From Tissierellia bacterium (GTDB taxonomy: Bacteria > Bacillota > Clostridia > Tissierellales > Peptoniphilaceae): 24,000 nt of DNA. Under the pieces are notes generated by a model. The model worked only from the letters and a program-made list of their open reading frames with translations, was not told the origin of the DNA and searched no databases. Positions 247 through 22,137 of the stretch are shown one piece after another. Made by a program: the position numbers and the translations under genes. Location: positions 18,439-42,438 of the forward strand of contig JAAYQA010000015.1 of NCBI GenBank assembly GCA_012519495.1, given 5' to 3'. Numbering within the stretch: position 1 is the stretch's first letter; each line of letters opens with the position of its first letter.

Positions 247-2562
247 TTATGCTTCCGTTTCGGTATCTTCTTCTGCCGTTTCTTCTTCTGCAACGGTCTC
301 TTCCGTTTCCGATTCCTCGGTTGCTGTTTCCGGTACTTCTTCTGTATCTTCTGCAACGGTTTCTTCGTTTTCTTCCGCTGCAGCCGGCTCTACCGTTTCG
401 GTTTCTACGGCTTCTTCTGTATCTTGTTCTTCAACCATTTGCTCTTCCGGAGCCGTCTCCGGTGCATCCGCTACCGGCTCTCCAAGATCGAGCATATCGA
501 AGTCGAAGTCCACCAGGGAGCCGATCGTGTTTTCAAAATCGTCCCCTTTAAAGACCGGTGTGCTGCGTTTTTCCACCGTTTGTCTGCGCGGGCGACGCGG
601 CTGTTGTTGCTGTTGTCCGGGTTGCTGCTCAAACTGTGCGGTACGACGCGATTGACGTTGCGGGCGTTCTTTTTTTTCCTGCGGTTTCGTTTCTTTGATA
701 CTTAAACCGATGCGCTGTGCCTCTTGGTTGATATCAAGAATCTTTACCTCAATTTCTTGCCCGATATTCAGTTCGTCCGAGGGTTTTTCCACGCGCTCGT
801 GACTGATTTGCGAAACGTGCACAAGGCCTTCCACGCCCTCTTTCATGCGGACGAAGGCACCAAAATCAAGCATATTCACCACGGTACCGGGTACAATATC
901 GCCCACTTCATTGTTTTTCACAAACTCGTCGAAGGGTTTATCCAGGAGTTGTTTTCTGCCCAGGGAAATACGGTTGGTTTCCCGATTGGCGCGCAGGATT
1001 TTCACTTCGATTTCGTCGCCGACAGTAAGTGCATCGGAAGGATGTTTCAGGCGTTTCCAGGAAATATCCGAAACGTGCAGCAGTCCGTCGACACCGCCGA
1101 GATCAATAAATGCACCAAAGTCTGTCAGACGGGCTACTTTTCCGGTTACGACATCGCCCACATGGATTTTTTCCCAGGCTTCGTCCAGAATACGTTCTTT
1201 TTCTGCTTCAATGACGACTTTTCTGGAAAGTACCAGTCTGCGTTTTCTTTCATCGATCGAGATGATTTTTGCTTCGACGGTTTGACCCACAAATGCCGAC
1301 AAGTCGCGTACATAATGTGTATCTACATGGGAACCCGGGATAAATCCGTTAATGCCCATTGTTGTAACAAGAAGACCGCCTTTGACATCTTTTTCGATCG
1401 TGGCTTCTACTGTTTCGCCGGCTTCATGGATGTCCATGAGCTTTTGCCAGTTTTTATATTTTTCAACGCGTCGGGAGGACAGAATCACATTGCCTTCACC
1501 GTCATCCAGTTTAATGACATATACTTCAATCGTCTGGCCCGGTGTGAACAGATCTTTCGGTTTAGCATTGGTGTTCTCCGAAAGTTCGTCCTGTTTGATA
1601 ATGCCGTCCGATTTGTAGTTAATGTTCACCATTACTTCACTGTCGGTGACATAGATGACTTCACCCTCGATGATTTCCCGGGGGTGAACCGGCTTCATGG
1701 TGTCTTCCACCTGCTCCATAAACTCGTCTTTGCTGTAATTGTCCATTCTTTTCACTACCTCCTCGATTAACCAATCCGGTGTAGATGCACCAGCGGTTAT
1801 TCCTATTCTTTTCATTTTTACCAACTGATCGATCGGTAAGTCTACCGCTGACTCAATAGGATACACCCTTTTACAATACTGTGATGCGACTTGCGCCAGC
1901 TTTTGCGTGTTCGAACTGTGCGCCCCACCGATCACAATCATTGCATCTACTTCCTTAGCAATCTCGGCGCAGGCTTCCTGACGAAGCCTGGTAGCGTTGC
2001 ATATGGTGTTCAGTATCACTACGTTCTGATTGTTTGCGGCAATCAAAGCTGAGAGCTGCTCAAATTTTTCCTCTCGGTTGGTCGTTTGGGACAATACGAA
2101 AACATCGGTCAGGCCGGTAACGGCTTTTGCCTCCTCCTCCGAGTTTACCACGGTAGCCTTATAGTCGGTCCGGCTGGAGAGAGCAACGACCTCCGGGTGC
2201 ATACTGTCGCCAATAATAATAACATTATAACCCTTTTCTGTCATTTCTTCCAGTTTTTCATACATTTTTATTAAGGAAGGACAGGTCGTATCAACGATTC
2301 TGTGGCCTTTTTCTTCCAAGGCCGCTTTGGTTTCCTTGCAAATGCCATGGCTACGGCTGATAATGACCGCATCTGATGCGGGTTCCTCTTTTAGCGCGTC
2401 TTTTAATCCCATTTCACCGAGTTTTTCCACTACATGGCGATTATGAACCAAAGGTCCCAAACCGTATGCCTGTTTTTCTTCTTTTAAGGTGCTTTCCGCC
2501 AAAAGGACGGCGCGCTTGACCCCGCCACAGAATCCGGCATGTTCAGCGATGATGATTTCCAT
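247..2562 (-). CDS. ispH: Bifunctional 4-hydroxy-3-methylbut-2-enyl diphosphate reductase (IspH/LytB) fused to four ribosomal protein S1 repeats, with a basic/Q-rich linker and an acidic E/T-rich tail
   Basis: IspH Cys motifs are present: [35 protein letters not shown]. Four S1/OB repeats follow, e.g. [30 protein letters not shown] and [30 protein letters not shown] moved the start to the ATG at 2562 (MEIIIAEH) because GGAGG sits 6-7 nt upstream, inside the longer ORF's MRRKY extension. Confidence 0.9.
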
Positions 2563-3148
2563 GTACTTCCTCCTCATAGATCGACTCGAATACGGCGCGG
2601 GTGAGCGCTTGAACCGCCTCTTCTTTGGCTAAGCCGGCGGTTACTTCCCGGGTTTTAATCACTTCCCGAAAATGCACGTCGACCCGGGAAAACAATTTGT
2701 AGGTGGCGTGAATACGGACCGGAACAATATCCGCCTTTGCGCGCATGGCAATGACGGAAACACCCTCTTTGAAATTGCGGATATCGATCGTGTCCACACG
2801 CGTTCCCTCCGGAAAGATGCCCAGCACGTCTTCCTCTTTCAGAATCGACAAGGCCGTTTTTAAGGCCCGAATATCGGTTCCTTCCCGGTGCACCGGAAAC
2901 ACGCCTACCTTGCGTAGGATCCAGGCGAGCGGCTTGAACGAGAACAATTGATCTTTTGCCATAAACCGGATCGGACGTTCTGTATAAATACCGAGAAAAA
3001 CCGGATCCAACATCGACTGATGATTTCCGCATACGATGACCCGCCCTTCCTGCGGCATGCGCTCTTCCCGGTGTACGCGGGGCCAATAAAAGGGCGTCAG
3101 AAGGATACGGACCAGACCGGCCGCAAAACGGTACCAATTATAGCGCAT
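2543..3148 (-). CDS. plsC: 1-acyl-sn-glycerol-3-phosphate acyltransferase
   Basis: It has the acyltransferase motifs NHQSMLDP (HX4D) and FPEGTR. The start is set at the ATG at 3148 (MRYNWYRF), preceded by GGAGG-N6. The ORF-track start at 3163 is a TTG that lies within the SD. Confidence 0.85.
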
Positions 3149-7785: not shown

Positions 7786-8399
7786 TATAGGAACAATCCT
7801 ACCAGGAAGCGAATGATCGCATTGGCTGCCGGTACAAGAATGCGTTGGAGTGCACCGGAAAAGACAAAAATGACGAGGATAATATAAAAATACCGTTGAT
7901 ACTGATACACCTTTCGTTCCATCTGCACCGGCAGAAAACTGAACACAATCTTTGATCCGTCCAGTGGCGGAAAAGGCAACAGATTAAACACGGCAAAATA
8001 TACATTATACAAAATCATCAACTGCAGGAATTCTGCCCAGAGAGGGTGTTTGTTTCCTGTATAGATAAAAAGGCCGACGCTCACGGTGGCCAGCAGAAGA
8101 TTCATGCCCGCCCCGGCCGCCGAAACAAACAGCATACCGGCTTTGCGGTTCCGGAAACGATTGGGATTGATCGGGACCGGTTTAGCCCAGCCGAAGCGAA
8201 AGAAGAGCAAACTCAAAGTTCCCAGCGGGTCCATATGCTTGATCGGATTCAAGCTCAACCGCCCTGCGTCTTTCGCCGTGGTATCCCCCATAAGAAGCGC
8301 TGCACCACCGTGCGCCAGTTCATGTGCCACAATCGTAAGGAGTAGGCATACGGCGGTAATCAGTATATTATCGGGTAGCAGATTCTGTATAAAAGACAT
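7785..8399 (-). CDS. Site-2 protease family (peptidase M50) membrane metalloprotease
   Basis: It has the HELAHG zinc motif, a second motif NLLPFPPLDGS, and multiple hydrophobic segments. Confidence 0.8.
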   Translation of the reverse strand: MSFIQNLLPDNILITAVCLLLTIVAHELAHGGAALLMGDTTAKDAGRLSLNPIKHMDPLGTLSLLFFRFGWAKPVPINPNRFRNRKAGMLFVSAAGAGMNLLLATVSVGLFIYTGNKHPLWAEFLQLMILYNVYFAVFNLLPFPPLDGSKIVFSFLPVQMERKVYQYQRYFYIILVIFVFSGALQRILVPAANAIIRFLVGLFL

Positions 8400-9705
8400 C
8401 GGTGTCCGTCACTTTCGCGAAAATCAAAGGTTTTTGTGCTGCGCCCTCGCCGATCGTAATGGCAGATTGCAGGATCTTGGCAGACTCTGCGCCCCGTTTT
8501 TCATCATTCGCATAAAGGACAGCAATCACATCCCCTTTTTGTACCGGCGTGCCGCTGCGGAGCTTTCTTTCGATTCCGACATCCAGATCGAGGACATCGT
8601 CTTTTTTCAAACGGCCGCTACCCAGTTCCAAGGCGGCTTCACCGGTCAGTCGCGCATCGATTTTTTCTATGATCCCGTCTTTCTCTGCCTTTACAGGAAT
8701 CTGAAAACGAGCTTTTCGCAGTTTCTCCGGTTTCTCTACAAACGATGTGTCGCCATCCTGTTCCTGTACCATTTCAAGGAACTTTTTATAGGCCGCCCCG
8801 TTGGCAATCTGTGCCCGTACGCGCTCGGTAGCACGTTCGATATTTGTTTCTTTATCGGCCAGAATCAATTCTTCCGCTGCCAAAGCAATGCTCACTGTCA
8901 GAAGAGGCCCTTCCTTCTCTCCGCGCAGAATCCGGATCGCTTCATATACTTCCAGAGCATTTCCGACAAAGTCGCCGAGCGGTTCTTCCATCGCCGTAAT
9001 CAGACAGACCGTCTCTTTGGAAAAACGTGCACCGATTTTTGCCATCGTGCCGGCCAATTCAATCGCGCGATCGGGATCCTGCATAAAAGCACCCGATCCG
9101 ACTTTTACATCCAGGAGGATTTTATCGGCACCCACCGCCAGTTTCTTGGACATAATCGAAGATGCGATCAAAGGGATTGCATCGATGGTTGCTGTTACAT
9201 CCCGCAGTGCATAGAGCTTTTTGTCGGCCGGGACCAAAGTACCTGTTTGTCCGGCGACGGCCAAATGCATGCGCCGCACCTGGTCAACGAATTCCTCTTC
9301 CTGCAGCTCCGTTCTGAGCCCCGGTATCGACGCCAGTTTATCCAGTGTACCGCCGGTATGGCCTAAGCCACGGCCGGACATCTTGGCAAACGGAATGCCC
9401 AAAGACGCAACGAGCGGGCCGGTAACCAGCGTCGTCGTGTCACCCACGCCGCCGGTAGAATGTTTATCGACGATAATACCGGGTATACCCGACAGATCGA
9501 TTACATCACCGGAATGGACCATATCGTCCGTAATGGCATACAGTTCGGCTTCGGTCATACCGCGAAGATATACCGCCATCAGCCAGGCGGCGATCTGATC
9601 GTCGGTTGCTTCGCCTGTGTGAATCATTTGAAACCATGCCCGGATGGATTCACGGGAGTGTTCTTTACCGTCCCGTTTGGTGGCAATAAAATCAGATGCG
9701 TGCAT
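8368..9705 (-). CDS. pdp: Pyrimidine-nucleoside (thymidine) phosphorylase
   Basis: The motifs KHSTGGVGD and SGRGLGHTGGTLDKL are present, and the protein resembles Pdp/DeoA along its full length. Confidence 0.92.
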   Translation of the reverse strand: MHASDFIATKRDGKEHSRESIRAWFQMIHTGEATDDQIAAWLMAVYLRGMTEAELYAITDDMVHSGDVIDLSGIPGIIVDKHSTGGVGDTTTLVTGPLVASLGIPFAKMSGRGLGHTGGTLDKLASIPGLRTELQEEEFVDQVRRMHLAVAGQTGTLVPADKKLYALRDVTATIDAIPLIASSIMSKKLAVGADKILLDVKVGSGAFMQDPDRAIELAGTMAKIGARFSKETVCLITAMEEPLGDFVGNALEVYEAIRILRGEKEGPLLTVSIALAAEELILADKETNIERATERVRAQIANGAAYKKFLEMVQEQDGDTSFVEKPEKLRKARFQIPVKAEKDGIIEKIDARLTGEAALELGSGRLKKDDVLDLDVGIERKLRSGTPVQKGDVIAVLYANDEKRGAESAKILQSAITIGEGAAQKPLIFAKVTDTDVFYTESATR

Positions 9706-12749: not shown

Positions 12750-13202
12750 CTAACGAATACTCTCCTTGATCTGATCCAGAATCGAATCCAGATCGTCTTT
12801 GTTTTCCACAGCAATAAAAATGGTATCATTTCCGGTTAATATCCCGGCGATTCCTTTTATCTTGCTGTTGGTCACCGCCATTCCGCAAACCGTACCTGTA
12901 TGTGCAATGGTCTTTATGATAATCATTTCTTCGTTTCTTTTTATGGATAAAACGGCCGAGCGAAAAATCTTGTCCAATCGTTCATTGAGTGAATCGTGCA
13001 CCGTATCAATCAGAGCATACCGGTATTCCCCTTCCGCCGACTGTACCTTCGAAATTCGAAGTTCTTTTATGTCACGGGATATGGTTGCCTGCGTTGCGCG
13101 AACGCCCCGGGTCATGAGGTATTCGGAAAGCTCTTCCTGGGTGCGGATCTCAAATTCTTCAATCAGATCGAGAATGATTCTTTGGCGCGTGTACTTTTTC
13201 AT
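12750..13202 (-). CDS. argR: Arginine repressor
   Basis: It has the winged-HTH motif TQATISRDIKEL and the C-terminal oligomerisation/arginine-binding region GILTGNDTIF. An AAGGAG SD lies 6 nt upstream. Confidence 0.92.
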   Translation of the reverse strand: MKKYTRQRIILDLIEEFEIRTQEELSEYLMTRGVRATQATISRDIKELRISKVQSAEGEYRYALIDTVHDSLNERLDKIFRSAVLSIKRNEEMIIIKTIAHTGTVCGMAVTNSKIKGIAGILTGNDTIFIAVENKDDLDSILDQIKESIR

Positions 13203-13800
13203 CTTTCGCTCCTTTATTCTTATTTTTCTTTTCCTTCAATGGAAAGAAAAAGGAAAATCGCCGGATTATTTTTGCACTGAACATAACAATTTCCTGCGCA
13301 TAGCTTATCGATATCGACTTTCCGATTGCCTTCCCGCCCACCGTCGTGGCTGAAATCGCCCCGGTGAACAATACACTCAACAGCGTACCATTTATAAAGC
13401 CAAAGGAACCGAGAATACGAAATACAATCATCGTTCCTACGGCACCGCTTACAATACCGCAAATGTCTCCAATCACATCATTGCAAAAATTGGAGACCTT
13501 ATCCGCGTTTCGAATCAACGCGATCGCATAGTCCGCAGAAGGAACGCGATTGGCTCCCATTGCATGAAAGCCCTTCACTTCCGCTGCCGTTACCGCAATT
13601 CCGATAATATCGAAAACTATGCCGATCGCGATAATTGTCAAAAGTAAAAGCGTGGCCACAAAGGTGGATACGCCTGAAACCAGAGCATCCGACAAAAAAC
13701 TGATACTAACGGATAAAACCAAAGTCCAGAAGGTGATGAACCGCACCCATTTTCCGTCGATGCTTTGCAATATTTTTTGTGTTTTTTTGGGTTTCGCCAT
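13159..13800 (-). CDS. oapA: Four-TM membrane protein, candidate OLE-associated protein A (OapA); looks CNNM/DUF21-like by eye
   Basis: The start is at the ATG at 13800 (MAKPKKTQK) with GGAG 4 nt upstream. There are four hydrophobic segments: WVRFITFWTLVLSVSISFL, FVATLLLLTIIAIGIVFDIIGIAV, VIGDICGIVSGAVGTMIVF and LLSVLFTGAISATTVGG. The C-terminus is a Lys-rich tail. The gene lies directly downstream of the large non-coding RNA candidate, in the position known for oapA. Confidence 0.6.
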   Translation of the reverse strand: MAKPKKTQKILQSIDGKWVRFITFWTLVLSVSISFLSDALVSGVSTFVATLLLLTIIAIGIVFDIIGIAVTAAEVKGFHAMGANRVPSADYAIALIRNADKVSNFCNDVIGDICGIVSGAVGTMIVFRILGSFGFINGTLLSVLFTGAISATTVGGKAIGKSISISYAQEIVMFSAKIIRRFSFFFPLKEKKNKNKGAKDEKVHAPKNHSRSD

Positions 13801-13827
13801 GTTTCTCCGTTCAAATAAGTATGTAGG

Positions 13828-14369
13828 ATAGTGAAGATGCACATAGTAAATCTTACGGCATAGGTTTAGTAGAATTTCTCCGCCTGCTACTGCGCGTCGC
13901 CGCCATCAGCGGTTTCCCTTTAAAGCAAACGCCGGACCGTCACCAAAACCGGAACTAAATCACCACTAAGTCCGCACTGTAATCCCATGTGCATCAAACA
14001 GTCTAGGAGTTTTCCTCTACAACCAGTCGGATCCTTATCCTTTTTTGCAAAGAATGTTTCGATACCAAATAGCGTTTGGCCTGGCCACAGCCTCCCCCTA
14101 CGAACGTTATCTTCCGCAGTCTTCACTCAAGGCAAGCTACGCTGCAAAATGCAGGTTTTATCATCCGCGTGTGTTGTCGCGGAAGTCTCCGCGAGGGTAG
14201 GGTCAACGCCTACATGCCATTGTAGATCGCCCCATCCCTCTTACTCCCAGAACATACCCCCGACTGGGCGTCGTGAGCATAAACCAGGAACTTCATCGAT
14301 GTGCTCTGCGACGGATTTTTAGCCCCGCCCTCCAGATCCGTTGTGCTGACTAGAATACTGCTTCACTAT
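13828..14369 (-). ncRNA. ole: Large structured non-coding RNA, candidate OLE RNA (Rfam RF01071 class)
   Basis: A ~575-nt gap (13801-14419) has no SD-supported ORF, in a window where other genes abut. It has a dedicated consensus-like promoter. Local hairpins include 14177-14194 (UCGCGGA-GACU-UCCGCGA), 14311-14316/14336-14341 and 14142-14154. A 9-bp pairing joins 14361-14369 to 13828-13836. The context, ispA upstream and a 4-TM protein downstream within xseAB-ispA...argR-recN, is characteristic of ole. The ends are approximate. Confidence 0.65.
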
Positions 14370-14375
14370 TACATG

Positions 14376-14404
14376 ATTATAGCAGAAATTATCGGATTAT
14401 TCAA
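14376..14404 (-). promoter_or_regulatory. Sigma-A type promoter with an extended -10, driving the ncRNA (and probably oapA)
   Basis: The minus-strand sense reads TTGAAT (14404-14399), a 17-nt spacer ending in TGc, then TATAAT (14381-14376). The predicted +1 is about 14369. The promoter lies only 15 nt downstream of the ispA stop codon. Confidence 0.65.
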
Positions 14405-14419
14405 TCAAAAGCCCGACTT

Positions 14420-15262
14420 TTATACATCCCGATGCATAAGTGAACGGGTAATCTGCATCAATCGATCCGTATTGCGTCCTGCCAGACGTGACAATGCGAG
14501 CAGCGCTTTTTCTGTATGAGAAACCATGTTTTCTTCCGCTTCTTCCTGCGTCATGAACCGTAAAATCGTCATATTGTCTGCTTCCAGATCCTGACCGGCG
14601 TCCAGTAAATCATCCTGTATCTGGAATGCCGCCCCGACATGCTCGGCATAGTCTCTAAGAAAAGCACGCTCCTCCTCTGTTGCCCCGCCCAAAACCGCAC
14701 CCGCTTCGCAGGCGGCAAGAATCAGTTTCCCGGTTTTCTTTTCGTATAAACGCAACAAATGCGCTAAATCTTCCACGCGATCATACAAGTCCATAATCTG
14801 GCCGCTCAGCATCCCGTCGGTACCGGCCGCACGGGTGAGAATCTGTGTTGCCATCCATTTATTCGGATCTTGTTGTGCGGCGGACATGGCCAGTTCCAAT
14901 GCGCCGTTGAGCAAGGCATCGCCTGCCAATATGCCCATAGCTTCGTCAAATTCCTTATGCAGGGAGGGACGGCCGCGCCGATAATCATCATCATCCATCG
15001 CGGGCAGATCATCGTGTACCAAAGAATAGTTGTGGATCATCTCCAGACTGACCGCAAAGGGCATGGCCGCATCCAGATCCTTCGCAAAAAGCGCATAGGA
15101 CTCCAACAGCAGAACCGGACGCAGGCGCTTGCCGCCTCCGTCCACCGCATACACGAGCGCCCGCTTAAGCAAAGGATGCATCGGCATCTCTTTTAACGAT
15201 GCCTGCAGGGCTTGTTCAAAAAGCTGTCGGTTCTTCTGGGTTATCGTCAAATAATCCGTCAT
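14420..15262 (-). CDS. ispA: Polyprenyl (farnesyl/geranyl) diphosphate synthase
   Basis: It has the first Asp-rich motif LVHDDLPAMDDDDYRRG and the second, FQIQDDLLD. The start is set at the ATG at 15262 (MTDYLTI), preceded by an AAGGGA SD. The ORF-track start at 15295 was rejected. Confidence 0.9.
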   Translation of the reverse strand: MTDYLTITQKNRQLFEQALQASLKEMPMHPLLKRALVYAVDGGGKRLRPVLLLESYALFAKDLDAAMPFAVSLEMIHNYSLVHDDLPAMDDDDYRRGRPSLHKEFDEAMGILAGDALLNGALELAMSAAQQDPNKWMATQILTRAAGTDGMLSGQIMDLYDRVEDLAHLLRLYEKKTGKLILAACEAGAVLGGATEEERAFLRDYAEHVGAAFQIQDDLLDAGQDLEADNMTILRFMTQEEAEENMVSHTEKALLALSRLAGRNTDRLMQITRSLMHRDV

Positions 15263-15479
15263 TTTCCATCCCTTCCCGTTGAAACGGCAATGCAAGCTCC
15301 CCTTCCATCTTTAGTAACTCCCCTTTGGAACGTCTCAGACACGCATCCAGCTCGCTGTATAATTGCATTCCCTTCTTGTATTCATTTAGATTCTCATCCA
15401 GCGATAATTCACCCGATTCCAATCGCGAAAGGATCGCTTTCAGTTCCTCCAGGTTTTTCTCATAGTCCTTGAATTCCAT
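15216..15479 (-). CDS. xseB: Exodeoxyribonuclease VII small subunit
   Basis: It contains LEELKAILSRLESGELSLDENLNEYKKGMQL, typical of XseB. The start is at the ATG at 15479 with a GAGGAGGAGG SD. Its 3' end overlaps the ispA start by 47 nt. Confidence 0.85.
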   Translation of the reverse strand: MEFKDYEKNLEELKAILSRLESGELSLDENLNEYKKGMQLYSELDACLRRSKGELLKMEGELALPFQREGMENDGLFDDNPEEPTAF

Positions 15480-17621: not shown

Positions 17622-17984
17622 TTATTGTTCCGGATCCTCTTCGTCTGCTTCGTTGTCGTCGTCTTCTTCGAAAACAACATCTTCTTCAAAATCGTCCATA
17701 TAATCGTCGAATTGGAAATCGTCAAAATCGTCGAAGTCTTCAAAATCGTCATCAAAGTCTACACCGTAAAGCTCTTCTTCCACATCCGATAAATCTTCGT
17801 CGATAAAAGCGATATAGTCTTCAATATCTTCCTGCGCTTCTACAATGGCATCCATCGTGTCCACGATTTCTTCCAGCGCATCGATAATGTGTAGAAAAAT
17901 CTTGCCTTCATCGGTCGACTCGTCAATTTTCAGGCCGTCGGTGATGCCTCTGAGATACGAAATTTTCTGATAGAGATATTGCAT
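17622..17984 (-). CDS. Small, highly acidic protein: a helical N-terminal domain plus a D/E/F-rich tail. Possibly related to the efp-adjacent clostridial 'CD1247 N-terminal domain' family, but that is from memory and unverified.
   Basis: A strong SD (TAGGAGGACAAA) precedes the ATG and overlaps the efp stop. The 120-aa product begins MQYLYQKISYLRGITDGLKIDESTDEGKIFLHIIDALEEI and ends DFDDDFEDFDDFDDFQFDDYMDDFEEDVVFEEDDDNEADEEDPEQ. A terminator follows. Confidence 0.6.
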   Translation of the reverse strand: MQYLYQKISYLRGITDGLKIDESTDEGKIFLHIIDALEEIVDTMDAIVEAQEDIEDYIAFIDEDLSDVEEELYGVDFDDDFEDFDDFDDFQFDDYMDDFEEDVVFEEDDDNEADEEDPEQ

Positions 17985-18625: not shown

Positions 18626-19792
18626 TTAGGGGTCAGGGAAGTTGTCCGGCGGTGGTGTATATACCCCAAGGGTCTTTAAGGACAAAAAGCCCGGTATATC
18701 CATCCCTGCAAGCATTTTGCGCGGATTCGCCCTTGTATAATCCAAAGCACCTAAGTTTACATCCCGGTCCGATTCATAATAGCCGTTGATTTTGGAGGTC
18801 TTACTGAGATGAATCGTACCCTTTTGTAAAACGATCCCTTTTATCTCGGTGCGCAGTAAATCCAAATCGCCTTCCAACAGGATCGTGCCCAAAAAAGGCG
18901 CCTTCTGCGCGATCTGCATGGCTTCGATCCGTACATGACCCGTTACGATCAAAAACACAGATTCGGTATCGGGAAAAGTGGCAATCCATTCCCATTCGGG
19001 TTCGGCAAAATCTTCTGTAGAAGGCGGCTCCGCAACCGGTTCCGAATCCTCGGGATCGGGCGGCAAGGGCTCTTCCGTATCTGTTTCGTCCGGCAAAACT
19101 TCCGGCTCGGGTTCTTCCGGATTAGATGTTTCCGTATCCGTGTCATCCGGCGGACTTTCCGGAACGGGGGTTTCTGTTTCCTGCGGCTCTGTCACCAGAA
19201 CTTCTTCGGATTCTGTGTCTTCCGGTTCTTCTTTTGATTGTAGTTGATACACTTCCCAGTGCTTTTTGTCTTTTGCCAATTGGATCCGCAAATCGGTATC
19301 GGATAAGATAAACGGCAAACCGGCTTCTATGATTTTCTCTTTCAGGAATGCCATTTTGGCATCCAAAGACAGGCCCCCCTCCCCGGATGTCTGATCCAGC
19401 GGCGTTTCTACGATCTGTTCGGCATGATAACTTCCTGCATCCGCCACAGGAGTAAAACGCCAGGATAAGCTCTGTTTATTCCCGTCGATTGCAACATGGG
19501 CCAGCGTTTGTGCGCCGTCTGCTCCTATAAGAGAAAGGGGGTATTCCTTTGATTCGGCAGCGTGCGGGCCTGTGATATGTGCTTTAAACTGTCGCATAAT
19601 CGCCTCAGCATTGCCTTTTTCCAGCAGATAGGAAATATTTCCTTCCAACTCCGCTTTGTCCCGTATCGTTGCAATCCGGTTTTCCTCTACCAAGATAGCC
19701 AGTCGCATTCTTTCCATCGAATAAAAGGCGATCATCCCGATAAAGGCCAGTAGTATAATTACATAGATCAATAAGAATCCGCGTTTTTTCAT
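18626..19792 (-). CDS. Pilus-operon terminal protein, ComGG/PilX-like (N-terminal hydrophobic anchor without a canonical G/FTLIE site), with a large acidic Pro/Glu/Thr-rich insertion
   Basis: The N-terminus MKKRGFLLIYVIILLAFIGMIAF resembles the ComGG-type RGF(I/L) anchor. Its start forms an ATGA overlap with the preceding minor pilin. The central ~85 aa is low complexity (...EEPEDTESEE...PPDDTDTETSNPEEPEPEVLPDETDTEEPLPPDPEDSEP...). Confidence 0.5.
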   Translation of the reverse strand: MKKRGFLLIYVIILLAFIGMIAFYSMERMRLAILVEENRIATIRDKAELEGNISYLLEKGNAEAIMRQFKAHITGPHAAESKEYPLSLIGADGAQTLAHVAIDGNKQSLSWRFTPVADAGSYHAEQIVETPLDQTSGEGGLSLDAKMAFLKEKIIEAGLPFILSDTDLRIQLAKDKKHWEVYQLQSKEEPEDTESEEVLVTEPQETETPVPESPPDDTDTETSNPEEPEPEVLPDETDTEEPLPPDPEDSEPVAEPPSTEDFAEPEWEWIATFPDTESVFLIVTGHVRIEAMQIAQKAPFLGTILLEGDLDLLRTEIKGIVLQKGTIHLSKTSKINGYYESDRDVNLGALDYTRANPRKMLAGMDIPGFLSLKTLGVYTPPPDNFPDP

Positions 19793-20319
19793 TCTGTTTG
19801 CTCCGGCAGTTCCAGCAGCCTGTGAAATCGGCTTTTGCGCCCGCCCTGTTCTAATTCTATCTCTACTTCCAGTATGCCGGCCTCTTTATCCAGCCGGGAG
19901 GAAATCGCGTTGATATGATGAGACAACAGATTTACACCCCTGTGCGGACTCCCGCGAAATCCGTGCAGTCCTTTCGCCGTATAGCGTCGTATGGTGCTTG
20001 TCAGCTGGGCATAGGTAACGTATTTTTCCTCATGAATCTTCAGGACAAAACCCATGGGGGTTGCGCCTTCAATAAACACATCCACCTCATCGGGACCGTA
20101 AACTTCCTGGGCAGACTTTACTTCCCGCTCGATATAGTCCATTGCAAAAGAGCCGTCCAAAAACAGGGTATCGGCGGATTCCAGGTGCTTGGAAACCAGT
20201 ATCGTTTGCGAAAACAACGCATAAATGACAAAAACAAGTATCGAACTGATGGCCATGGCGCATACCAGTTCAATGAGCGTAAAGCCTCTTCTATTCCGTA
20301 CGCAAAAGCCGAATCGCAT
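19789..20319 (-). CDS. Minor (pseudo)pilin with a prepilin-type N-terminal cleavage/methylation signal (GspJ/PilW/ComGF-like by size and position)
   Basis: It carries the class III signal RRG|FTLIELVCAMAISSILVFVIY. The start is set at the ATG at 20319 (MRFGFCVRNRRG), preceded by GGGAGGG-N8. The ORF-track start at 20388 gives an implausibly long leader. Confidence 0.65.
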   Translation of the reverse strand: MRFGFCVRNRRGFTLIELVCAMAISSILVFVIYALFSQTILVSKHLESADTLFLDGSFAMDYIEREVKSAQEVYGPDEVDVFIEGATPMGFVLKIHEEKYVTYAQLTSTIRRYTAKGLHGFRGSPHRGVNLLSHHINAISSRLDKEAGILEVEIELEQGGRKSRFHRLLELPEQTE

Positions 20320-20656
20320 CCTGCATGCCCTCCCGCCGGATCTCATACCAATACAGTCCGTTGTGATCTGTAGTGGCATGGATTTCATAAACGGTATCTC
20401 TGTACCGGATCATCCTGATATCGCCGTCCTCCAGGTCTTCTACGGGGCGGAGGGATCCGGTATCTGTCTGAATCGGCGCCTTTTTATTAACACAGGTGAT
20501 CAGATTCCTGAGAAACTGATTCTGCAATCGCAACTCTTCCAGTTCTGCAAGCTGCCGGGAGGTGGATCCCAAAACCGGAAGCATAGCCAGTACGAGAATG
20601 GAAAGCAGACTTAAGGCAACGATCACCTCGATCAGACTGTAGCCTTTGCGTTTCAT
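20291..20656 (-). CDS. Minor (pseudo)pilin with a prepilin-type N-terminal signal (ComGE/GspI-like by size and position)
   Basis: The N-terminus is MKRKG|YSLIEVIVALSLLSILVLAML. Its start forms an ATGA overlap with the upstream pilin. Confidence 0.7.
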   Translation of the reverse strand: MKRKGYSLIEVIVALSLLSILVLAMLPVLGSTSRQLAELEELRLQNQFLRNLITCVNKKAPIQTDTGSLRPVEDLEDGDIRMIRYRDTVYEIHATTDHNGLYWYEIRREGMQDAIRLLRTE

Positions 20657-21072
20657 GGTTCCGTCACCGTAAACCGCGCAACGCCAACCGTGAAATTCAA
20701 GTAAAGCGACTTTGCCCCATAGCTAATCGGAATATGTCCGCATTTGGAAAAAGCGCCGGTTGGATAAATGACCAGCGTATTCCCTATATGTCTTGGTTTA
20801 TCCATAGTAATTCTTCGCAATTGTCTTGCAAGAAGCTCGCTGCCATCTTCAGAGACGACGCGATAGCTGTTGTTATCGGTATCAAAGTGTACCCTGACCG
20901 ATTTCTGATGAGCCACGGCATAGGTACGCGCAAAACGCAGGTCTTCCAGCATATGATCCAACTCCCGTTCTTGCACCATCGTGATGCTGAGCACGGCAAC
21001 CCCCAGCATAATTGACAATATGCCGAGGACAATAACCATTTCCAGTAGTGTAAAGCCTTTGCGTTTCATCAT
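20653..21072 (-). CDS. Minor (pseudo)pilin, GspH/FimT/ComGD-like
   Basis: The N-terminus is MMKRKG|FTLLEMVIVLGILSIMLGVAV, followed by a GspH-like region (L.DLRFARTYAVAHQKSVRVHFD). A GGAGG SD is present. The second ATG, at 21069, may be the true start. Confidence 0.75.
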   Translation of the reverse strand: MMKRKGFTLLEMVIVLGILSIMLGVAVLSITMVQERELDHMLEDLRFARTYAVAHQKSVRVHFDTDNNSYRVVSEDGSELLARQLRRITMDKPRHIGNTLVIYPTGAFSKCGHIPISYGAKSLYLNFTVGVARFTVTEP

Positions 21073-21770
21073 ACGCCTCCATGAAAGAGAATCACCAGCG
21101 TAAAACCAATCGCAATAAACGGAACAAACGGGATCGGCCGTTTTTTATCCGCCCCGTGAATAAGAAGAAAGATCGCTACCCCGGCTGCTGCCCAAACAGA
21201 ATACAAGAAAAAGCGGAGTTGCAAGGGAGGTGCAAAGAGAAAAAGCAGCAGCCCGATCAGAATCTTATCCCCGTCGCCCATTCGGTCTTTTGCTGCAAAG
21301 GCAAACAGGATCCACACAAAAACACCGGGCAACGCAGAAATAACGGCCTTTTTCTCCCAAACGAGAAGAAGAAAAACCAACACACCCACCAGGATCAGAT
21401 GCCTGTCATACACATCCTGTGTAGCAAGATCGATCCCAGCCATGAGAAGCAGTATGCTCACAATCGTACAATACAGGACAAACGAAGCATTCAGGCCAAG
21501 CCGCAAATAAAACAAAACAAAAAGGAAGCCCGATAACAGCTCTGTTAGCGTGCTTGCGATTCCTATGGCTGCATGACACGTTTTGCAGCGTCCTTGTAAT
21601 GCCACATAACTAAGGATCGGCACCAGTTCGGCCGCTCCCAAAGGGGTGTGGCAATGATCGCAGTGCGATCCGGGCCGGAGCAGGGATTCTCTGGCCACCG
21701 TTCGCATGGCTGCCAGGTAGAGAAATGAACCCACACTGGCACCTAAAAAGAAAATAAGTAAGACTATCAA
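21069..21770 (-). CDS. pilD: Prepilin peptidase (A24 family; PilD/ComC)
   Basis: It has the N-terminal Cys pairs CDHC...CKTC, a polytopic membrane body, and Asp motifs (GIDLATQDV and MGDGDKILIG). It apparently starts at a TTG 3 nt after the pilin stop, with no SD, which suggests translational coupling. Confidence 0.85.
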   Translation of the reverse strand: MIVLLIFFLGASVGSFLYLAAMRTVARESLLRPGSHCDHCHTPLGAAELVPILSYVALQGRCKTCHAAIGIASTLTELLSGFLFVLFYLRLGLNASFVLYCTIVSILLLMAGIDLATQDVYDRHLILVGVLVFLLLVWEKKAVISALPGVFVWILFAFAAKDRMGDGDKILIGLLLFLFAPPLQLRFFLYSVWAAAGVAIFLLIHGADKKRPIPFVPFIAIGFTLVILFHGGV

Positions 21771-21773
21771 GGC

Positions 21774-22094
21774 TTAAGGAGTAATTCTGCTTGCTTCTCC
21801 GTTTGCATCGACCTGGAATCCTTCCGGGAAGACTTCAATATAGTCTTGCCAGTTTTCTTTGTTAGCCTGTGTCCAGGGCAGCCCGCAAGCAGCTTCGCCT
21901 TCACTGCTGATGCAAAGTATAGCTGCATTTTCCAACATCCGGATGCTTGCTTCATCTGCTTTTTCCTGGGCTCTTTCCCTGTAACCTGCGTAAGCCGGAA
22001 TTGCAATGGCCAGCAAAATAGCCAGGATGGCTACGACAACGACAAGCTCGATCAGCGTAAAACCCTTCCTCTTCCTGTTCCCTTTTTTAAACAT
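21774..22094 (-). CDS. Major type IV (pseudo)pilin, ComGC/PilA-like
   Basis: The N-terminus is MFKKGNRKRKG|FTLIELVVVVAILAILLAIAIPAY, with Glu5. The mature protein is short, about 95 aa, with a Cys pair (CISSEGEAAC). A GAAGGAGGAAGG SD lies directly upstream of the ATG at 22094. Confidence 0.8.
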   Translation of the reverse strand: MFKKGNRKRKGFTLIELVVVVAILAILLAIAIPAYAGYRERAQEKADEASIRMLENAAILCISSEGEAACGLPWTQANKENWQDYIEVFPEGFQVDANGEASRITP

Positions 22095-22107
22095 GCCTTC
22101 CTCCTTC

Positions 22108-22137
22108 AAAAATATTCACAAGCCAAAAGGCCTTGTG
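22108..22137 (-). terminator. Weak candidate terminator after comM
   Basis: The minus-strand sense reads CACAAGGCC-UUUU-GGCUUGUG (one bulge) followed by AAUAUUUUUG. The stem is imperfect and the U-tract is not contiguous with it, so confidence is low. Confidence 0.3.

Follow-up and report, generated by a model that had tools for sequence, protein, structure and literature searches.

A 24,000-nucleotide stretch of Tissierellia bacterium DNA (contig JAAYQA010000015.1, positions 18,439 to 42,438; hereafter the window, always at its full length) carries, in the gap between ispA and oapA, what is with near certainty an OLE (ornate, large, extremophilic) RNA encoded on the minus strand. A sequence-only reading of the window had proposed such an RNA at 13828-14369 as a candidate, and a covariance-model search on the minus strand of the gap bears this out: the Rfam family RF01071 (OLE) matches 14382-13815 with 433.4 bits (E 2.2e-124) against a gathering score of 50 bits, untruncated and over positions 1-616 of the 616-position model. 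It is the sole Rfam match when the whole window is scanned against Rfam 15. OLE RNAs are about 600 nt long and have some 25 helices; here the match spans 568 nt, its first model positions aligning to the -10 box of the promoter, and the core closed by helix P1 spans 538 nt, with ends that fall within 2-3 bases of those proposed. Canonical pairs form at 120 of the 135 model pairs, and more than 200 alignment columns are invariant over 20 OLEs, every one of which the window has. We therefore consider it very highly probable that the gap encodes an intact, full-length OLE RNA with its core at 14367-13830. The elements discussed below are as follows, with helix names assigned here from the text of published papers.

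13815-14382, minus strand: OLE RNA gene at the full RF01071 extent; the 5' end of the match takes in the -10 box
13830-14367, minus strand: structured core closed by P1 (AGUGAA 14367-14362 with UUCACU 13835-13830), from P1 pairing and covariation
14334-14360, minus strand: 5' strand of P2 (CAGU..CUAG, 14360-14350) and 5' strand of P3.1/P3 (CAGC....CGGAUCU, 14348-14334), with partners at 14034-13999
13999-14034, minus strand: 3' strands of P3/P3.1 (GGAUCCG....GUUG, 14034-14020), P10 (GAGGAAAACUC, 14017-14007) and 3' strand of P2 (CUAGACUG, 14006-13999), from pairing and covariation
14310-14329, minus strand: P4 hairpin with A-rich loop CUAAAAAU (14322-14315); helix 2, paired 100%
14193-14303, minus strand: P5/P5.1 and P6/P6.1 region with invariant blocks CGAUGAAG and GAGUAAG; helices 3-5, paired 88-100%
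14162-14185, minus strand: shortened P7 with core UCCGCG/CGCGGA, preceded by the invariant J6/7 GGAGAC (14190-14185); from the minimum free energy (MFE) fold and relatives
14142-14154, minus strand: shortened P8, CUGCA-UUU-UGCAG; helix 7, paired 98%
14038-14133, minus strand: full-length P9 arm with palindromic loop UGGCCA (14087-14082); from model and alignment
13836-13995, minus strand: 3' domain with the long-range P12 helices, P13 and P14/P14.1; helices 13-18, paired 92-100% with many compensatory changes
14376-14404, minus strand: sigma-70-type ole promoter with -35 TTGAAT (14404-14399), a 17-nt spacer with TG at 14384-14383 and -10 TATAAT (14381-14376); 10/12 match, extended -10
13159-13800, minus strand: oapA, encoding a 213-aa membrane protein, with the Shine-Dalgarno (SD) sequence GGAG at 13808-13805; from homologues, motif, fold and linkage

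Judged from sequence, the identity is given by homology and covariation, not by fold stability. Twenty OLEs were aligned with MAFFT, the window structure from the covariance-model alignment was projected onto them with P1 added, and slid versions of the structure as well as 500 shuffles served as controls. Standard pairs form in 88.2% of cells versus 39-46% for the slid structures, 81 pairs are changed on both sides versus 32-47, and the covariation score is 0.427 versus about 0.12; none of the 500 shuffles matched the observed values. Covariation in homologous gaps, which had been named as a check on the candidate, is thus strong. P7 and distal P9 score low in this alignment because MAFFT misaligns regions of variable length. 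RF01071 itself leaves its first 53 positions unpaired, and P2, P3 and P3.1 were placed using the helix descriptions in PMC12265935; their cells are paired at 97.1%, versus 25-39% when slid, five of the seven P3 pairs show compensatory changes, and the three helices together add 7 compensated pairs to the 81. P1, paired in 94% of cells, reads GUGAA/UUCAC in the window clade and GUGGU/ACCAC in other lineages, a compensatory change. The MFE fold independently finds P1 and picks the conserved P7 pairing.

The linkage to oapA extends well beyond the window. Its product has 5797 database homologues, and near-identical OapA proteins (same 90%-identity cluster) are annotated in metagenome-assembled genomes of Tissierellia and Peptoniphilaceae. 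Eight related contigs, three with near-identical OapA and five more diverged ones (L084-L088, OapA 71-83% identical to that of the window), share the order xseA-xseB-ispA, an uncalled gap of about 620 nt, oapA-argR-recN-NUDIX; gene callers left the gap empty on all eight. OLE occupies the gap in each of the six close or diverged contigs that were scanned (423-454 bits). It also lies directly upstream of an oapA homologue in 20 of 20 more distant genomes, found by OapA similarity (39-51% identity among the matches listed) and including Tissierellaceae, Gudongella, Anaerosalibacter, Caloranaerobacter, Sporosalibacterium and Anaerosolibacter (404-558 bits), bringing the adjacency to 26 of the 26 related loci tested, over the same 404-558 bits. 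The host, an uncultured Tissierellia/Peptoniphilaceae lineage, fits the anaerobic or extremophilic Bacillota known to carry OLE.

Within the window, the ispA-like gene (14420-15295, minus; a polyprenyl synthetase/FPP synthase by profile matches) ends at 14420-14422, as had been stated, and the first SD-supported start after it is the ATG at 13800-13798. The gap between them, 14419-13801, measures 619 nt and not the roughly 575 nt first given. Its description as the only large non-coding gap holds: by the coordinates of the open reading frame (ORF) list, the remaining junctions among plausible minus-strand genes are all at most about 75 nt. The gene order nusB-xseA-xseB-ispA-OLE-oapA-argR-recN is the classic OLE neighbourhood with the exception of dxs; xseA, xseB, ispA, argR and recN are present as claimed, whereas dxs, also named there, does not occur in the window. 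In Halalkalibacterium halodurans dxs adjoins oapA; here it is missing, so that oapA abuts and overlaps argR. The window also contains an Asp23-family protein gene, and we take yqhY, a gene listed in PMC12265935, to belong to that family. A tRNA scan found no tRNA or tmRNA genes in the window.

But what about the two short ORFs in the gap? Both are indeed in the ORF list (68 aa, minus, 13920-14126; 111 aa, plus, 13987-14322), each without an SD according to the sequence-only reading. An antisense frame is open over 92-132 codons in the window, L084 and L085, which is what an explanation of the gap as a small-protein gene would build on. However, the frames are shifted or broken in the remaining relatives, L006 lacks any open stretch of at least 50 codons, and the conservation tracks RNA helices with compensatory changes rather than codons. 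A conserved translated ORF in the gap had been named as evidence against an OLE RNA, but no ORF there is conserved across the relatives compared, and with the gap left empty by gene callers on all eight contigs we reject coding ORFs there and give a small protein a negligible chance.

The RNA has good evidence for a dedicated, conserved promoter. The TTGAAT-N17(TG)-TATAAT promoter had been pointed out in the sequence-only reading and is present; as a single match it is not above chance (2 promoter-like matches found versus 4.0 +/- 2.3 in shuffles). Across the five diverged relatives, however, the -35 box is TTGAAT throughout, at a constant distance from a -10 box that reads TATAAT or TATATT, while the intergenic DNA around them is scrambled. 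From the boxes, transcription is predicted to start near A14369/14370, 2-3 nt before P1. The -35 box lies just 15 nt beyond the ispA stop, with no terminator in between, so ole is probably also transcribed by read-through from nusB-xseA-xseB-ispA; read-through from upstream genes into ole is described for H. halodurans (PMC12265935). On the other side, P1 and the start codon of oapA are 29 nt apart, a stretch that has an SD but no hairpin, both in the window and in each of the five diverged relatives, and a terminator between OLE and oapA was found in none of these six. We propose from this layout that transcription may run on into oapA and the overlapping argR.

The downstream side differs in many other genera, where a terminator-like hairpin, GCUGAUAGC-loop-GCUAUCAGC followed by a U-run, stands within about 10-15 nt after OLE. 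It is seen at L001:2896-2960, L003:2941-3000 and L013:2911-2960 and at no fewer than 12 further loci (at least L002, L005, L008, L009, L011, L014, L016, L027, L038, L044, L067 and L076), and is absent at 13830-13800 of the window. Apart from a few compensatory variants its stem sequence is near-constant across genera, unusually so for a terminator, and the hairpin is without mention in the OLE literature cited here. Judging by these comparisons, the window clade has lost this terminator-like hairpin. We rejected the idea that a layout without terminator is unique to the clade, since it has about as compact a counterpart at some 30 OLE loci of unrelated lineages.

The known contact motifs of OLE are complete in the window: the A-rich P4 loop, GCCCA, AAUGGCAU, the palindromic P9 loop, and the GUGA and GCGA tetraloops. 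The palindromic CUAG of P2 belongs to the OapA contact region, and the A-rich P4 loop is a dimer contact in cryo-electron microscopy (cryo-EM) models (PMC12265935); the loop CUAAAAAU is invariant in 19 of 20 sequences. The P5.1 loop GCCCA (14269-14265) and the P6.1 loop AAUGGCAU (14221-14214) are complementary via GCC/GGC; a kissing-loop role and a kink-turn (k-turn) are described for this region (PMC12265935, PMC9723947). Around the putative alternative k-turn for OapC/bS21, the window has the invariant blocks CGAUGAAG and GAGUAAG. The P9 loop is self-complementary in the relatives too (GGCC or GGGCCC). P13 (13952-13932) has a GUGA tetraloop (13943-13940) and a single bulged U, and P14.1 a GCGA tetraloop (13900-13897), so that the OapB-type determinants, a GNRA loop plus one-nucleotide bulge in P13 and a second GNRA loop in P14.1 (PMC7936274), are intact. 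Invariant single-stranded blocks such as GCAGUAUUCUAGUCAG, CUCCUAGACUGU and AAAGGGAAACCGC are likewise kept. P3 and P3.1 together form 11 pairs around a 4x4 internal loop, close in length to the proposed membrane-spanning OLE stem of about 12 bp (Lyon & Breaker 2025, PMC12265935).

The four hairpins that the first inspection had picked out all exist as complementarities, whereas two of them are not conserved pairings. The one at 14142-14154 is the conserved, shortened P8. The hairpin at 14177-14194 (UCGCGGA-GACU-UCCGCGA) sets the invariant J6/7 (CGCGGAGAC) against the P7 5' strand, which would then be unavailable for the covariation-supported P7 (14185-14162); it is impossible in L087 and L088. 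The helix 14311-14316/14336-14341 joins the 5' strand of P3 to the 3' strand of P4. It is impossible in the 14 sequences that lie outside the clade, where the P3 5' strand is CUAAUC or similar and covaries with its true P3 partner. On the minus strand, CGCGGA occurs twice (14194-14189 and 14167-14162) around UCCGCG (14183-14178), so that the P7 5' strand has two possible partners; as the J6/7-P7 alternative is not conserved in L087 or L088, it is probably incidental. In contrast, a hairpin at the P7 position is kept in L086, L087 and L088 with wholly different sequence.

The gene downstream of OLE has the hallmarks of oapA, as had been supposed. Four hydrophobic segments (about 18-40, 45-72, 108-130 and 133-155) lie between basic termini (net +5 at the N terminus, +8 at the C terminus), and the block NFCNDVIGDICG, invariant in 20 homologues, holds the DxxxD motif D108-V-I-G-D112 that distinguishes OapA from CNNM domains (PMC11332333). 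No family was assigned to OapA at default Pfam/NCBIfam thresholds; in a relaxed search PF01595 scored 16.8 bits, below its cut-off of 28.4. Many homologues carry precomputed PF01595 (CNNM/DUF21) matches or are named by their source as CorB-type Mg2+/Co2+ transporters. An AlphaFold model built with 20 sequences is all-helical (predicted local distance difference test score, pLDDT, 73), and its top six fold matches in the Protein Data Bank (PDB) by Foldseek are transmembrane domains of archaeal MtCorB and bacterial CorC (7M1T, 7M1U, 7CFF, 7CFG). The model thus weakly reproduces the published OapA-CorB relationship. The genes oapA and argR overlap by 44 nt (oapA stop 13159, argR start 13202), as they do in L084 and L085; in L086-L088 there is no overlap, for want of the Lys-rich tail at the C terminus of OapA. 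ArgR is itself an unpublished candidate for binding OLE (PMC12265935). In public records, the OapA of this lineage is labelled ‘hypothetical protein’.

How might the RNA work? That OLE acts together with the adjacent OapA is very likely. By homology with the OLE RNAs studied in H. halodurans and Clostridium (PMC12265935, PMC11332333, PMC7936274, PMC9723947), the RNA would fold in two domains, domain 1 comprising P3-P9 and domain 2 P1, P2 and P10-P15. A homodimer would form, with the A-rich loop of P4, the kissing loops of P5.1/P6.1 and the palindromic loop of P9 as its contacts. OapA, distant kin of the Mg2+ transporters CNNM/CorB/MpfA with four helices and a DxxxD motif, would hold the RNA at the membrane, OapB would be recruited on the GNRA loops of P13 and P14.1, OapC/bS21 on the k-turn region, and possibly other proteins would join. 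The RNA would then be the regulatory or scaffolding half of a membrane ribonucleoprotein (RNP), in place of the cytosolic CBS/CorC domains that OapA lacks, and the RNP could couple the state of the cell (Mg2+, membrane, cold, alcohol or carbon stress) to the activity of OapA and of partner proteins. Such a particle would aid adaptation to alcohol, cold, excess Mg2+ and poor carbon sources. What we observe here is the identity of the RNA with its conserved fold and intact contact motifs, the promoter, the linkage to oapA and the features of OapA; the dimerisation, membrane localisation, partners and physiology in this scheme are taken from the literature and would hold by homology. We put about even chances on OLE being a regulator or scaffold of OapA-linked divalent-cation and stress homeostasis, and we rather doubt that the P3 helix crosses the bilayer.

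Several points weigh against reading the gap as an intact, fully working OLE of this kind. P7 is cut to 8 pairs and P8 to 5, and a small hairpin at model positions 424-434 is deleted in the window, as it is in 6 of 6 clade members; functions tied to P7/P8 or to the lost hairpin, if any, may be reduced. No terminator stands before oapA to form a discrete RNA 3' end. The MFE of the proposed interval has a z of only -1.57, with 7 of 100 shuffles folding as well; because both promoter-like matches and folding energy lie near shuffles, the gap could not have been proven by inspection of its sequence. On the protein side, a PDB sequence-profile search with 20 OapA homologues returned nothing meaningful, and the CorB/CorC fold matches are weak (probability 0.99-1.0, E 0.02-0.4, template-modelling score 0.4-0.54). 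Among the genes of the window, which is part of the genome only, there is no oapB, oapC or mpfA, where the published pattern is of genomes that encode OapB and OapC and lack MpfA; everything biochemical about this OLE is transferred from other species. None of this counts against the identification as OLE. Could the copy be a decaying relic, homologous but non-functional? Its 433 bits lie near the low end of the 404-558 of the relatives, few of the 61 OLEs measured have so short a P7+P8 segment, and one hairpin is missing. However, five relatives with just 71-83% OapA identity have the same trimmed architecture, and these relatives show compensatory changes in P1, P7, P9 and P12-P14 alongside an invariant promoter. 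Every conserved block and contact loop is intact, and P7 and P8 make no dimer contacts and are dispensable for them (PMC12265935). The comparison speaks strongly for purifying selection on this copy, and a relic is very improbable.

Two further explanations concern what an intact OLE does. It could mainly be the 5' leader of an oapA(-argR-recN) mRNA, controlling oapA expression or capturing OapA as it is translated, with RNA and protein then assembling jointly at the membrane, and not first be freed. The short, terminator-free, SD-bearing distance to the oapA start in the window and five relatives and the unbroken ole-oapA adjacency in all 26 related loci favour this, and the clade really differs here, because many other genera carry the hairpin and U-run after OLE. 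However, the compact layout is not special, because some 30 unrelated OLE loci share it; a leader would need far less than 540 nt of RNA equipped with motifs for dimerisation and protein binding, and a leader role is compatible with, not exclusive of, an RNA that serves as scaffold for OapA. As the principal role we consider it improbable. A more specific form, in which the clade makes OLE-oapA-argR as one transcript from the strictly conserved promoter and the RNA captures OapA, perhaps ArgR, during translation from its own 3' extension, strikes us as a long shot; if true, such co-translational assembly in cis would deliver the RNA to the membrane, or even into it, offer a route for inserting an RNA helix in the bilayer, and make the naturally trimmed OLE, with its short P7/P8, a compact model for structural work. 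A ribozyme, in which the size, the ornate fold and the approximately 25% invariant nucleotides serve a catalytic centre and OapA is only an anchor, has been argued for by the Breaker laboratory from size and conservation (PMC11332333), and the window keeps the invariant single-stranded blocks. However, no substrate or reaction is reported in PMC12265935, PMC11332333, PMC7936274 or PMC9723947, where the function is stated to be unknown, contacts within the dimer or with proteins now account for many of the invariant loops (PMC12265935, PMC7936274), and nothing in the window bears on catalysis. We hold a ribozyme to be unlikely, and continue to prefer an OLE RNA that acts with OapA in a membrane RNP.

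The window holds several other features outside the OLE locus. At 18626-22109 (minus) lies a type IV pilin/pseudopilin cluster. Three to four of its ORFs are pilin-like (N_methyl), another encodes a prepilin peptidase (A24_N_bact), and the 388-aa product of 18626-19792 has neither an NCBIfam match nor a Pfam match on record. At 247-2577 (minus), a 776-aa protein fuses IspH (HMBPP reductase) to ribosomal protein S1 domains (NF000907, 729 bits), a second isoprenoid-pathway gene beside ispA in a window where dxs is absent. Between efp and the Asp23-family gene, 17622-17984 (minus) encodes a small protein with a CD1247 N-terminal domain and an extremely acidic, D/E/F-rich tail (DFDDDFEDFDDFDDFQFDDYMDDFEEDVVFEEDDDNEADEEDPEQ). 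A 426-aa frame at 8086-9366 (plus) is open antisense to the pyrimidine-nucleoside phosphorylase gene (8368-9705) and is probably a composition artefact, not a gene.

Few bacterial non-coding RNAs of still unknown biochemical function are as large as OLE, which is why its correct annotation matters. The window copy is a further example of a known RNA class, with variation that is minor and of already-described kinds; it adds little beyond the thousands known and makes the question of OLE function no more testable. What it does document is that the dedicated promoter is conserved and that the RNA is fused to oapA-argR without a terminator.

Finally, we would compare this OLE with known systems. 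With the full-length OLEs studied in Halalkalibacterium halodurans, Clostridium acetobutylicum and C. botulinum it shares the whole model, P1-P6 and P9-P15, the single-stranded blocks, the dimer loops, the OapB GNRA loops and bulged U, oapA downstream, the xseA-xseB-ispA...argR-recN setting and a Bacillota anaerobe as host. It differs from them in the 8-bp P7, the 5-bp P8 and the absence of hairpin 424-434, and in having neither dxs nor a terminator after OLE. As for the protein partner, the transmembrane core of OapA resembles the CNNM domain of MpfA/CorB/CorC (by the sub-threshold PF01595 match and fold ranks 1-6); however, OapA lacks CBS or CorC domains, and it has four hydrophobic helices where CorB has three, with DxxxD as its own feature. 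OLE and OapA have been proposed in the literature to do together what MpfA does as a single protein. GOLLD, ROOL and the raiA motif are, like OLE, large and highly structured non-coding RNAs, and GOLLD, ROOL and OLE are homo-oligomeric in cryo-EM (PMC12286853). These other classes show no sequence or model similarity to the window, which only RF01071 matches. A dedicated membrane-protein partner gene is, to our knowledge, specific to OLE among such large ornate RNAs.

The closest comparison is with the described OLE variants. Variant 1 (TANB77 type) has short P7, P8 and P9 and often no OapB site in P13, and variant 2 (RF39 type) has neither P7 nor P8 (Fernando & Breaker 2024, PMC11332333). The shortened P7/P8 and the uncultured host are shared with variant 1, which we rejected because P9 in the window is of normal length (74 nt versus a median of 76) and the P13 GNRA loop and bulge are intact; variant 2 was rejected because both the P7 and P8 hairpins are retained. 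The P7+P8 segment of the window measures 44 nt, versus a median of 85 and a minimum of 47 in 52 other OLEs, the upper lengths being unreliable because the lazy regular expression used can anchor too far upstream. Lengths of 40-51 nt occur in the window clade and of 47-51 nt in several other genera; because they form a continuum across genera, with the window at its short end, we also rejected a discrete new variant. The copy shows an uncultured Tissierellia clade that trims P7 and P8, drops one small hairpin and keeps the dimer-contact and OapB-type protein-contact motifs, in agreement with the published dispensability of the trimmed and dropped elements.

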